In this document: in pieces, positions 749 to 7,567 of the stretch | How positions within the stretch are numbered: position 1 is the stretch's first letter | Layout of the letters: each line of letters starts with the position of its first letter | Position numbers and translations under genes: made by a program | Assembly (NCBI GenBank): GCA_051362555.1 | Contig: CM120641.1 | Location: 23,256,401 to 23,320,400 of the forward strand | DNA length: 64,000 nt | Reading direction: 5' to 3' | DNA from: Lingula anatina | Lineage: Eukaryota; Animalia; Brachiopoda | The notes under the pieces: generated by a model | Databases searched by the model: none | What the model was told of the DNA's origin: nothing | What the model saw: only the letters and a program-made list of their open reading frames with translations

Positions 749-3700
749 CCTATTTTAACTGTGGCTTCTGATTTCCATGCATCACTTGTCCACAAGCCCA
801 GCTTGTCACCCTTGTTTCTGATATTGACTACAGCACCACACACCTCATCACTGCTCTCCTCGAAAGCTTCACCTATTAGGCACAGGAGCTGTGAAAGATA
901 TGAAATATTTGAAAGATTAACAGTTTCAACAAGCATAAGGTCTGAATCATATACAACCTGCTGCAGAAATAGTTCAATTGTACAATTCAAAAAGAACATT
1001 AAGTCTACAACTTACAAAGAAATGCTAAACTGCAGGTAATAAAATATAGCTTATGTCAGTTTAAATCTGCTATGTTTTATATGCTTGATTACACTTTATC
1101 AACAGCATCTTAGTCAACCCTTGCTTTAAATGGCAATGTTATGACATTCTATTTCCAAATATTATTACTCCATTGAAAAAAATCATTGCAGACTATCAAA
1201 AATTCTTATTTTGGTCCACTTACTGTTTCTAGCCAGAACTTGTCTAGATCTGTATGCCTCTGTTGTTTGTTTAGGTTTATTAACCATCTTCCCCCTTTTT
1301 TATTCCTAGCATCTTCCCACATTGGCTGAATACCATCCTGGAGAAGATATTAATGTAATGAATGATTCACAGGAAATGAAATGCAGTTTATGACTGAAGT
1401 ACAGAAGACATTTTTATCTAAGAAAAATGTACTAAAACTGTAAGCAATTCATTTGTAAAACTTGTCAATGTGTGTAAACTGTTTGTACTTATTGTTCCAT
1501 GTCCACCTGACTTGACACCAGAGCCATGTCAAGGTAGCCAGGACCTTAAGAAAACTTCCCATTTACTATTTATATCTGCCAAGACCTTATTTCTAGGTCA
1601 GCACATACTATCCTAGTCTACTACTGTAAATGCACAATCATTTGTTAAAAACATATTCAGTAATTCATCTTAACATCTTAAAACAAAAGCCCAACACATC
1701 CTGTGCCATTAACTTTTCAGCTTACCAGTTTCACCAGATTCCCAAAATCAACTGGTCCTAATTAAGAATCACTGGTCAAAAAAAAAAAAAAAAATTCACT
1801 CAGATCCCTATTACAAATTAATAATAGTAATGACAAGACCTTGATTTTGTCAAATCTTTTAGGAATGCTTCCACCCATGGAGACGCACTCAAAAATATCT
1901 ATTGTAAATTGTGGAAAAAGTCAGTTAAAAAAAAATGCCATGTCAGACCACTTGATTCACACATTCTAAAAAATCTACTAGCCCACACAAAACTTTACTA
2001 TTTTTGGACGCCAGACCACTGGCTAGAGTCGCAGACTGCCAACAATACAAGTCAAAGGATGGTTTCATTCCATAATTTGCAATGCCTTTAGTCAGTCTGG
2101 GCTAAAGACAATAAAACCTTTGTTTATCTGACCTCAGGTCATACTGATCTTAACTTGGAAGGTAAAAGAAATCCTGTGACCTTTGTTTATTCAACCTGAG
2201 GTCACTGACCTTAAAATCAGATGGCAAAAGTGACATCAATCATAAGTCAATTACGGGCAATGTTCCAACAGACAAAGCTGACTTTCAAAAATATAAATAT
2301 ATGAACTCTTCAGTCTTATCCTCTTCCATATATAACTTACAATGTCCCAGTTACTTAACTGTGTTACAAGAATTCAAATTATCCCCATTTAAACTCGAGA
2401 CGTCCCACACCTGTCACATCAAACCTTCCTTAAATCACATTTTCCAAGGAAATATATGAATATTTAGTTCTAAATGGACTGTCAAATTATGAGTAGAGCA
2501 CATACCAAAGAGACTTTCAAATAACCTTATGGGTTAAGCAATTCTGTTAATCTCAGATATCTAAGAGTATAGAAGAGCAAAGTTGGCTTGAAGAAATCTA
2601 TTTCAACAGAAAAGAACTTCCATCTATTTGGGCCACAAGGCTGTAAAAATGCTTTTCTCCTAAGGATGCAAAACGTAATAAAATCCTTACAATGTCATAG
2701 TCTAGACAGAGCATGTGATTTTCATTTAAGTTGTTTCCAGATTACCTCTCTCGAGTAAAGGGCATGCCAAAAACAGCTTGCAGGGCAAGAAGGATATTGC
2801 ACTACCAAAAAAAAAAAATGCCTGCTGAAAAATGTCTTGTTAAAAAACCCAGTTAACCCATTTTATCACTTCAATCCTGAATAATTTTCATACTTTTGAA
2901 CAGTCAGAAAAATAAGTAAATGGCAATCTTAGAAAATTATCTATGTTTGTGTCTGTGAATTTTGTTTTCCCTTTTCATGGACTGGACCTAGACAGCTTTC
3001 CCATTCTCAACAGTGAGCCAGAACTGCCTAGTTAAGTAGCAGTAGATCACACAATTAGCTATAGTACTCGGCATATTTCAGCTAAACGACCCATATATCA
3101 AACACTGAATCAAGAATAGACCACTTCTAGAGATGCATACAGAATAACAAACAGTGCATGTGCCATAATATATTCAGGCATATTACATTTTAAAACACAA
3201 TAATATAATTGTAACCATACAGCACATACAACCAAGTATCAGCCATTTTTGTCATGATATTTACCTTAAATAATGAGTAATCACAGCCTGACGGTAATTT
3301 ACTAGCCGGTTGTATATGGTTATATAACCTACGGATAGAAAATACTCATGTTAAAACACCACAATACAAATGTGGATAGGCAGAGGCAGCAGGAAGTATG
3401 AACCCATACATTTTTAGTAAACATACTTCCCACTCATGACCTCATGGCAGGAAAAAGATGGAAACAACACCTTCTGCTGATCCAAATGGGAACAGCAACT
3501 ACATGGGCTATGTCAGAGGAGAGGGCAGACAATTTACTGCAAAAAGCAATTGTTTCCATCTTCTGTCCCCATCATACAACAGCCTTGTCCGTGTGTTAAG
3601 ACATATAGTGCCTGAATGGTGAACATCAGTAAAGAAATGGTCATTTTTTACTAAAGACTACTAGCATCACGTACCCAACCCCACTGACCTTAATGTACAC

Positions 3701-5827
3701 CAAAAATGCCAGTGCTATTTCCCTCAGCATTAAAAAGTATGTCCTCAATTTCCCCCATCCATGTTTTATATGTCTAAACACACAGCAACACTGACCAAAT
3801 GTTCTCAAACCATTACCTTGAATAAGGAATAATCACAGCCAGCTGACAGTTTACTACATGGCTTAATATTTTTATACACCCTGAAGCCGAAAACATATAA
3901 TTAGCAAAATAATTGAAAGGACAAAAATGTTTCTCATTACCAAATAGTTTGCTGGTTTAGGCTCTGACAACTACACATACCGAGTAAACCCAGTGATATC
4001 ATGCCACTGTGTTATTACACTGTAACTAATGTATTACAAAGGGATACACATCTTACATTTTGAAGTAATTTTAAGTGTAAACAGAGTGAGGAAAAAGCCC
4101 AGCCTTAAGGTCAGTAAAACTGCAGCTGTGCTTCAAAATCTAAATGGATATAAAGGGGTAGTAATACTTTGTTTTAACCCTATATCATTCACGTTGGGTC
4201 AGAAACTTGCAATCATTTGACTAGGATGACCCATGAAAATTATGGGAACATTATAAAATTGTGTGAAGTAGCTATCAGCACAATCACTCAACTCCTCTCA
4301 ATTTAACTTTTATGTGTTTATATGTATTCAAAATACAGGGGATGGAAATTATCCAGTGTTAAAATAAAAGGTGGCAAAATTTCACAAAATTATATTTCAC
4401 ATTTTTTTAATTCAGTTTGTCCTCTTCTTCAATTGTCTGCATAAGAAAAATTATGAAACTTACGCCCAGAAGTCCTCAACTGTATCAAATGATGTTATTA
4501 ACTTGAGATTAGATGCCCAGTCTTTTGCCTTGTCATTTTTGAAGAACCAAAGTGCCCATCTGTTTTGGAGTGGATGTTTAATGATAATTTCTGGGGTCAT
4601 TTCCTGGTCATCTTCAGCTTGATCACCTTTATCCGTTGAATTTTCAGGTTGTCGCTATAATGGATAACCAGAGATTTAATACAACATAATATCCATTATT
4701 AAGTTACTGATATAGTAGAATATATGCAAATGGAACATTTTTGTCATTTTCATTAAAAAGTACTAGTATGTAAGCAAATTGTGTTCTATTGATCTCTCAG
4801 TCATGTTTGGCTGCATACAAACTTTTTCAGTTCATGTTAATGTTTGACCCCTATCCATGTTAAATGGTATGTGTGCAATAATTGTCCAGCTCCAGACAGT
4901 TCACCAAAAATATAAACATTTCTAATTGGATCTCTAACTTAAAATGTTATTTATAAAAAAAATCAGCATTAGGCTAAACAGGCCCCACAGGTCATCATTT
5001 CAATTTAAAAAAAAATTACAATTATTTCAAATTTCTGCAAAAGCAAGTTTATGTGGTCTACTTAAATTCTTAGACATCTAATGTTAACAAATATAAACCT
5101 TGCCCATTAACTAAAAAGATACCTAAAGACCACATAAAAAGATCTTGTTAAGCTTAGTATTACTAGGAAAATATTGTACTAGCTGGAATAAACTGTAAAT
5201 GAAATACAAAGGCAATTTTTGAATGATACATGTACAGGCATACAATAATATATCTGACTAAATAAATAGTTTTTGAATGGATAACCTTTATGTAGGATAA
5301 GTCTTTTTTTAATATAAGGGTATTGGAAGAATTTTTCTTGTTCTAAAAAAGAGCATAACTGATCCATATGTTTTCCAGTCCTGCTTACTATCATAACAAG
5401 TTAATTAGTCATGAAAATTAAATCCAATTTAGTTTGAATAACTGTGGCAGTAGTCAAAAGTTCTCGTTTTCGTAACTAGTCTTTTATCATTTAATTACAG
5501 TTTCCTCTTTTTTTCGTTTCACACTCACTTTCCCAAAGAGGGTACTTGTTTAAGTTACATAACCGTTCAGTGGCCAATTATGGCATTCTTTCACTCGTGA
5601 ACCCATGCCTACCAAAGTCACACGGGGCCACGGCGCCAAACAGCTGGCAAGAAATATTTCAACAGAATAGTTACTAAAAACAAACCGTGTAATATCAAAT
5701 AAGTAATTATTTATGATAACGCTGATATAGGTTTTTCATTGACAGCGATTTAGACAACCTGACTGGTGTGAGTATGTCAAATATCCATATCATTTACCTC
5801 GTTTATTTCGGCCTGCTCGGAAGCCAT
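749..5827 (-). CDS. eIF4E: Eukaryotic translation initiation factor 4E, class I (3' exon lies left of the window)
   Basis: GT-AG exons 5798-5827 (MASEQAEINE), 4464-4654 (..KHPLQNRWALWFFKNDKAKDWASNLKLITSFDTVEDFWA), either 3817-3880 or 3265-3328 (64 nt), 1224-1337 (DGIQPMWEDARNKKGGRW..FWLET) and 749-888 (LLCLIGEAF..CGAVVNIRNKGDKLGLWT). Phases are consistent. Trp at the W43/W56-equivalent positions indicates class I. Confidence 0.97.
3265..3328 (-). CDS. eIF4E: eIF4E alternative exon 3b (canonical variant) LYNHIQPASKLPSGCDYSLFK
   Basis: 64 nt, acceptor ttctatccgtAG, donor AAG|GTaaat. Matches the canonical ALYNHI..GCDYSLFK segment. Confidence 0.95.
3817..3880 (-). CDS. eIF4E: eIF4E alternative exon 3a (divergent variant) VYKNIKPCSKLSAGCDYSLFK
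   Basis: 64 nt, acceptor ttcggcttcAG, donor AAG|GTaatg, phase 2 to 0, no stop codon, homologous to exon 3b. Confidence 0.88.

Positions 5828-6812: not shown

Positions 6813-6882
<70 letters not shown>
6812..6882. repeat. (AAT)n immediately followed by (ATT)n: a self-complementary microsatellite
   Basis: Directly visible; it produces the spurious poly-Ile ORF 6806..7003. Confidence 0.95.
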
Positions 6883-6883
<1 letters not shown>

Positions 6884-7567
6884 AGTAACAATTAACAACA
6901 ACAACAACAATATATGATGGTGATAATGATGGTGATAAAATCCTGAAAAATTTAAATTACAGGAAAAAAAATCAATCAACCAGTTGTATCCTTTGTCATG
7001 CAACGATTAAAGATGTTAATTGCTACTGCACGTATACAATGTACATGTAGTACGTACAACTGTTAAATCAATCTAACGTACTGCCCTTCAGAAAATCAAA
7101 CAGTCGCGCAGTGCTTACGCATGGTAAGAATTCAAGACTGTTTGTTTTCCACTGGGAGTGCTTACGTGTGAAAACCTGCTTCCGATCGAGCTTATCAGTT
7201 CATTTCACTGTGCAAACTATTTAGAAATAAGGAGAAATAACGTTTAATGTATGCGCCACCGGTGGATTTTTGTCTAATTTTGGTATTTCAATAGCAATGG
7301 CTGTCCTCAGTTTTTTATAATTTCAGTGTTTTTTTTTTTTTTCTTTTTTTTTTTCTTATTAAGGTTAAACACTCTTAATAGCATTTCACTTTTGTAAAAT
7401 CACCTTTACGGTAGATTACTTGAGAACAGAAAAGGGGGGATTCCGTCTCGCAGTTCACTCGGGACAACCACAGGGGGCTTTCCCGTCACATGGTCAAAAT
7501 TGGCCAATTAGGGCTAAGGAAATAGATGTGCGATTTAGATGCGCAGTGGATCATTATTGACATCAAA

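Follow-up and report, generated by a model that had tools for sequence, protein, structure and literature searches.

The 64,000-nt stretch of Lingula anatina genomic DNA described here (GenBank assembly GCA_051362555.1, contig CM120641.1, positions 23,256,401–23,320,400; referred to below as the window and numbered from its first letter) contains a gene for the translation factor eIF4E in which the third coding exon is present in two divergent copies. The window sequence is free of N and defines the scope of the genomic analysis. The gene lies on the minus strand between positions 749 and 5827 and has five coding exons besides the second copy of exon 3. Coding exon 1 (5798–5827, 30 nt) is placed by the ATG at 5827, by its frame and by a splice junction 5798>4654 found in all four RNA runs examined. 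Exon 2 (4464–4654) is supported by junction reads, by its alignment to residues 13–73 of human eIF4E and by 100% identity to P0003, a protein named Lingula anatina eIF4E at NCBI and the closest among the best 120 of 356 matches. Exon 4 (1224–1337) has junctions in all four runs, as has exon 5 (749–888; reads spliced 1224>888), with the next exon lying beyond the window. The two copies of exon 3, termed 3a (3817–3880) and 3b (3265–3328), are located between exons 2 and 4. The nearest match that bears a name comes from a brachiopod, which corrects the molluscan affinity implied by the original prediction for this locus, an earlier reading of the DNA from its letters alone.

Class I eIF4E proteins bind the m7G cap, eIF4G and the 4E-binding proteins (4E-BPs), and the available part of PMC1260017 characterizes the class by tryptophans at positions 43 and 56 together with an (S/T)VxxFW73 motif, H37, P38, W102, E103 and W166. 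In the Lingula gene, H37, P38, W43, W56 and the motif (TVEDFW73) are encoded by exon 2, W102 and E103 by exon 4 and W166 by exon 5, all of them constitutive exons. The gene is assigned to class I because W43, W56, TVEDFW73, W102, E103 and W166 are present.

Exons 3a and 3b are each 64 nt long, share the same phase, are preceded by AG and followed by GTAA, and contain no stop codons. They are identical at 45 of 64 nucleotides and 13 of 21 residues; the GCDYSLFK core is the same peptide in both, encoded with three silent differences. Their similarity (a 70-nt match with an E-value of 1.3e-6, also recorded as repeat D1) ends at the splice sites, and the flanks are unrelated. A profile of 32 exon peptides scored 93 for 3b and 75 for 3a, whereas the rest of the stretch from exon 2 to exon 4 reached no more than 11; the resemblance is therefore not due to chance. 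A search of the window for a third copy was negative. The reading frame into exons 4 and 5 is kept when either copy is used alone, and a premature stop results when both or neither are included, that of double inclusion falling three codons into 3b. The swapped segment corresponds to residues 75–95 of human eIF4E, residues 2–21 of the 3a peptide aligning to 76–95. The differences of 3a are clustered at 75–87 (V75, K77, N78, K80, C82, S86 and A87) and spare the G88–K95 core. All of these features had been called correctly in the original prediction as far as it described them, namely the positions, phase, splice sites and translations of the two exons, the synonymous differences in their common core, the frameshift and the human numbering. 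Its description of the exons as mutually exclusive stands in part: either copy alone maintains the frame, but only 3b was seen spliced, and exclusivity is thus an interpretation.

Steric exclusion of neighboring exons depends on a very short spacer between the first donor and the second branch point, and exclusion by incompatible spliceosomes on mixed U2/U12 signals. The intron between 3a and 3b measures 488 nt, and every site is of the GT-AG type with a GTAA donor, so both mechanisms were rejected. The hairpins predicted in this spacer leave approximately 85 unpaired nt, by a hand count with a guessed branch point.

Four of nine raw-read RNA runs were examined; the share of reads used was about 6% for X1, X3 and X4 and about 25% for X7. 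Read depth was resolved at 174 nt, and junctions were listed if supported by three reads from two starts (four loose-end rows fall outside this listing). The junction into 3b, 4464>3328, was covered by 34, 38, 55 and 41 reads in the four runs (168 in all), and that out of 3b, 3265>1337, by 49, 55, 51 and 29 reads (184 in all); 3b is the dominant form in the RNA examined. The corresponding junctions of 3a anticipated in the original prediction, 4464>3880 and 3817>1337, were absent at this threshold from all four runs. Neither the joint of the two copies (3817>3328) nor the skipping junction (4464>1337) reached it in any of the four runs, 3a being too rare in them to probe exclusion. In these runs, 3a accounts for a few percent of usage at most, unless its reads all share one start.

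The depth profile contains a weak signal at 3a. The bin 3832–4005, which covers most of 3a, has a summed depth of 5.9, whereas 20 purely intronic bins reach no more than 3.15 and average 0.52, and the bin at 3a exceeds every purely intronic bin in three of the four runs. Reads confined to the exon would give a ratio of 0.31 between the two bins that share 3a, and the ratios observed in X1 and X7 are 0.27 and 0.31, respectively. The intron between exons 2 and 3b as a whole carries more reads than the other introns.

The RNA also bears on the public gene model. P0003 (185 aa) runs from exon 3b into the following intron and lacks exons 4 and 5; it is contradicted by the reads, which are spliced 3265>1337 and 1224>888 in all four runs, and was probably mispredicted. 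At the end of exon 5 (position 749), run X4 has five reads that continue into an unusual sequence, compared with 27 that enter the usual next exon. Both continuations are absent from the window, and the five-read sequence is possibly an alternative downstream exon.

The ancestry of the two copies was assessed with a set of 233 homologous proteins, mostly from animals, collected from the best 120 of 356 and the best 120 of 1596 matches; 208 contain the segment, in 75 distinct versions. The 3b peptide is the homologue consensus and is found unchanged in homologues of other animals. Since none of the 75 distinct segments is nearer to 3a than to 3b, 3b is regarded as the ancestral type. All eight replacements between the copies lie on the 3a side. 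Position 77 is Asn in 74 of the 75 segments and position 78 is His or Tyr in all 75, and G88–K95 is nearly invariant. K77, N78 and K80 of 3a each occur in none of the 75 segments, and K77 and N78 are likewise missing from 30 exon peptides; Drosophila has Lys at position 80. V75, C82, S86 and A87 occur in 8, 1, 1 and 6 segments, respectively.

The copies differ by 11 silent changes over 14.1 silent sites, which is saturated, and by eight replacements over 48.9 sites. Gene conversion as the source of their similarity was excluded because the silent sites are saturated, and the duplication is old. In a codon model with 3b constrained, omega on the 3a branch is about 0.2 and omega = 1 is rejected in all four settings (p 0.015–0.035). 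Simulated neutral decay matches both counts in no more than 0.28% of 6000 runs at any of nine ages, and in no more than 0.08% when the absence of stops and the retention of AG and GT are also demanded. Thus, 3a has probably been maintained by purifying selection, and the selection on both copies suggested in the original prediction is borne out, with modest power, by these tests for 3a and by the consensus status of 3b. The tests average over the whole 3a branch and are blind to a recent relaxation.

Metagenomic contigs were scanned for the end of the exon, which yielded 119 loci from 51 of 64 collection parts. After removal of 32 loci without an AG-flanked open exon, 87 of the 119 remained with an open exon of the form AG-64-GT; because of these, the exon 3 boundary can be called widely shared. 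Of the 87 loci, 59 do not span both neighboring exons and 28 do (24 distinct exons). They derive from distant animals, none known to be a brachiopod, and their exon peptides are unlike both copies in the window. None of the 28 spanning loci contains a second copy (best second score 21.9, versus 75 for 3a), and on this basis the duplication is not general among animals. The conservation in relatives for which the original prediction had proposed a search was therefore not encountered among these distant animals. Searches for a 3a-type product with exon 2 (best 120 of 356 matches), among cluster members, and with a two-row profile that included the 3a peptide (best 120 of 1596 matches) were also negative.

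Four other observations concern exon 3 or eIF4E isoforms in other organisms. The ENA model P0178 reads through eIF4E exon 3 and has a degenerate, partial second copy about 110 residues later, which is absent from its cluster mates P0181 and P0182. In three similar metagenomic loci (L020, L082 and L098), a five-residue match to the start of 3b (LYNHI) directly follows the exon 3 donor and is probably due to chance. Two annotated Littorina saxatilis eIF4E isoforms of 208 aa each, X1 (P0159) and X2 (P0062), differ only in their last 16 residues, which look homologous and possibly reflect duplicated last exons. Isoform X2 lacks the Ser that aligns with the C-terminal Ser of vertebrate eIF4E, the Mnk site S209.

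The segment encoded by exon 3 contributes to partner binding. According to the available text of PMC5538437, the side chain of N77 lies close enough to R63 and T68 of 4E-BP1 for hydrogen bonds, the equivalent of H78 packs on P71 of 4E-BP1, and F47, I63 and I79 line the lateral pocket; the original prediction was right that N77, H78 and I79 touch the elbow loop and non-canonical motif of 4E-BP1. In the eIF4E homologue 4EHP, Ser occupies the position of N77 and the contact to R63 is lost (PMC5538437). In a preprint (10.64898/2025.12.23.696204, in the portion available), residues 77–85 of eIF4E belong to the part that rearranges when ligands favor 4E-BP1 over eIF4G. Exon 3a changes positions 77 and 78 and retains Y76, I79, L85 and G88–K95, while the cap-binding and dorsal residues are encoded by the shared exons. 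Because W73, Y76 and I79 are unchanged, the main dorsal and lateral binding residues should stay in the 3a form. Its product would likely bind the cap and canonical motifs and hold the linker of 4E-BPs less well; the residue changes do not indicate which partner would benefit.

The introns around 3a are predicted to be structured. The 488-nt intron between 3a and 3b folds far better than its shuffled versions (z = −3.94, none of 100 as good) and better than 46 of 47 other window segments. The one segment as extreme is probably explained by an AAT/ATT simple repeat at about 6840–6900. Three long hairpins are predicted in this intron (3793–3580, 3569–3449 and 3433–3389, together spanning 3389–3793 on the minus strand). 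No other copy of them exists in the window, and a transposon origin was rejected on this evidence, judged within the window only. Rfam returned no matches in the region 1300–4500.

An element in the intron upstream of 3a, termed U (4101–4132, minus strand), is predicted to form a 19-bp helix with the central part of 3a (4132–4112 with 3856–3837; mean pair probability 0.89, −27.3 kcal/mol). The corresponding duplex with 3b is weaker (−19.7 kcal/mol), and U ranks second among 12,784 overlapping window segments as a partner of the 3a core. Alternatively, U may pair with 3679–3693 or with 2204–2214. The first of these includes site S1 (3683–3693, minus strand), an exact 11-nt complement of part of U (predicted duplex −26.4 kcal/mol), and the second is site S2 (2204–2214, minus strand), a copy of the same 11-mer behind 3b recognized by sequence match. 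Across the 64 kb, the 11-mer is confined to 3683 and 2204; comparable 11-mer triples were found in two of 36 overlapping control segments, both within one tandem repeat, in a comparison made post hoc. As predicted, pairing of U with 3a would mask 3a, pairing with S1 would loop it out, and pairing with S2 would loop out both exons. The pairings with 3a and S1 would both fit the dominance of 3b. S2 is possibly a chance match. A short two-copy repeat with TGACCT motifs adjoins it at 2116–2204. No pairing that would activate 3a is present among the eight best duplexes of U, none of which has a partner between U and 3a. Since such a pairing is missing and U-S2 would loop out both exons, the label of a docker-selector system was rejected.

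We favor, as somewhat probable, the interpretation that 3a is a minor, mutually exclusive exon restricted to certain tissues or stages and to one lineage, which alters the contacts with the elbow loop of 4E-BPs. An old tandem duplication of exon 3 left 3b as the copy spliced in the four runs and, on this interpretation, 3a as a minor, regulated alternative. Element U would pair with mid-3a or with S1 behind it, either of which would favor 3b and silence 3a by default. Transcripts with both or neither copy would carry premature stops and undergo nonsense-mediated decay, so that surviving mRNAs would hold one copy. The 3a protein would keep W56, W102, E103, W73 and I79, and hence bind the cap and canonical YxxxxL motifs, and N77K and H78N would remove side chains that hold the linker of 4E-BP1 and shift the balance of partners. 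A more ambitious form of this proposal is doubtful in our view: a second, 4E-BP-resistant or partner-shifted eIF4E produced by a regulated swap at N77/H78, in which the switch is an intronic antisense element paired with the coding sequence of 3a, such that melting of one helix could uncouple translation from TOR/4E-BP control in a given tissue or stage.

In favor of a minor regulated exon stand the selection tests, the retained similarity of the exon beside flanks that have lost theirs, the raised depth at 3a, the stronger predicted pairing of U with 3a than with 3b, and the residues K77 and N78, which are absent from the homologous segments compared. Several observations weigh against it. 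No junction into or out of 3a was listed in any of the four runs, compared with 29–55 reads for each 3b junction in every run, and five reads across 3a would be expected to yield a listed junction. The raised depth at 3a may represent unspliced RNA, because scattered reads cover the whole intron between exons 2 and 3b; one or two unspliced read pairs could yield the bin ratios of X1 and X7, the ratio of 0.82 in X3 requires intronic reads, and X4 has zero depth on 3a. None of the 208 homologues with the segment is of the 3a type, and the 31-residue open stretch around 3a has four matches in a library clustered at 50%, none of the 3a type (three unrelated repeat proteins and one gene model). The selection tests involve only 21 codons, assume equal silent rates and have modest power. 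In the controls for element U, two of 96 window segments pair with 3a as strongly as does the upstream intron (post hoc, p about 0.03), and five of 96 are as strong for 3b, which shares its best partner site with 3a. Some functional plant and fungal class I eIF4Es have Asn at position 78, and the effect of N78 may accordingly be mild.

The most serious alternative, which we consider unlikely, is that 3a was long a working alternative exon and is now nearly unused under relaxed selection, the pairing of U having shut it off. The missing 3a junctions are as expected from such a lapse, as are the one-sided replacements, which include the otherwise nearly fixed N77 and H78, and the predicted pairings of U, of which the two strong ones repress 3a; recent relaxation would also escape tests that average the whole branch. 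However, 3a shows no stop, indel or splice-site damage, its replacements are clustered at 75–87 with the near-invariant core spared, and the RNA basis consists of four partly read runs. It is less probable still that 3a acts in unproductive splicing, either joined to 3b or slowing intron removal, and lowers eIF4E output through decay or retention with no second protein. The early stop in 3b upon double inclusion, the excess of reads in the intron between exons 2 and 3b and the strong structure of the 3a-3b intron are consistent with this possibility. A poison exon, however, need not keep its amino acids, whereas 3a preserves an eight-residue core across three silent changes; the 3a>3b junction was not listed, although decay would hide such transcripts.

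Neutral drift of 3a as a pseudo-exon since the duplication is very improbable. It would account for the lack of listed spliced 3a reads and of any orthologue or protein model found, and 21 codons offer limited power, but neutrality is rejected both by the codon model (p 0.015–0.035) and by the simulations (at most 0.0028, or 0.0008 with splice sites and open frame), and the flanks have become unalignable. That the second copy is an artefact of assembly or a tandemly placed allele can be dismissed for practical purposes: assemblies of the locus do differ, as P0003 departs from the window in the intron behind 3b, but the copies differ at 30% of sites between unrelated flanks in a window without N, whereas the window and RNA of the species disagree at just seven listed exonic sites.

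The minor regulated exon that we favor would be of interest since eIF4E is the control point at which eIF4G and 4E-BPs compete. Should 3a be in use, two natural proteins from a single gene would be available for comparison, with seven differences in the core (75–87); positions 77 and 78 among these are established linker contacts and hardly vary otherwise among the sampled animals. Such a pair would provide a clean test of how far elbow-loop contacts decide between eIF4G and 4E-BP binding. The case may be limited to one lineage.

The original prediction knew of no description of such an arrangement for eIF4E, and our literature search agrees: no report of a duplicated internal eIF4E exon was found, and no papers that combine Lingula and eIF4E (subscription papers, bioRxiv supplements and MetazExp were outside the scope). 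EIF4 does not occur in the available part of the human supplement of PMC8373072, where ATE1, FYN and U2AF1 do, and the body text of PMC9741552 does not mention EIF4E. Ten supplements of PMC5740500 likewise lack EIF4E in their accessible content, a weak check, as ATE1 appears there in one sheet only. The class of mechanism is well known, and eIF4E is, as far as searched, new to the genes with tandem-duplicated exons.

Tandem duplicated, mutually exclusive homologous exons are known from FYN, ATE1 (7a/7b) and U2AF1 (3/Ab), as described in the available parts of PMC9741552 and PMC8373072. The Lingula exons resemble these in being consecutive, homologous, internal and equal in length and phase, and in swapping part of a folded domain with core residues kept; they differ in that only 3b has been seen spliced and that the event looks lineage-restricted. 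Docker-selector RNA pairing operates in Dscam exon 6, 14-3-3zeta, Mhc, srp and ATE1, according to the accessible sections of PMC6071210. In its left-docker model, several sites further along can pair with one element of the left intron, as is predicted for U, and the first exon is looped out when a site in the middle intron is engaged, an effect that U-S1 would share. Unlike a docker, U, known here from single-sequence prediction, has its strongest predicted partner in the coding sequence of the first exon rather than in an intronic selector ahead of 3a, and no 3a-activating pairing was found for it. The Littorina saxatilis isoforms X1 and X2 likewise stem from one lophotrochozoan eIF4E and diverge in a stretch that looks homologous, which in their case comprises the last 16 residues rather than exon 3. 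Within the eIF4E family, the available parts of PMC1260017 and PMC5006505 describe classes I–III, Drosophila eIF4E-1 to -7 and human eIF4E1_1 and 1_3, and deposited eIF4E transcripts that differ mainly in their terminal exons (PMC5006505). These variants, as far as described there, also differ in eIF4G and 4E-BP binding, and the Ser of 4EHP at the N77 position (PMC5538437) is a precedent for a possible effect of N77K. They arise, however, from separate genes or changed termini, whereas the Lingula gene would by itself exchange part of the core domain.

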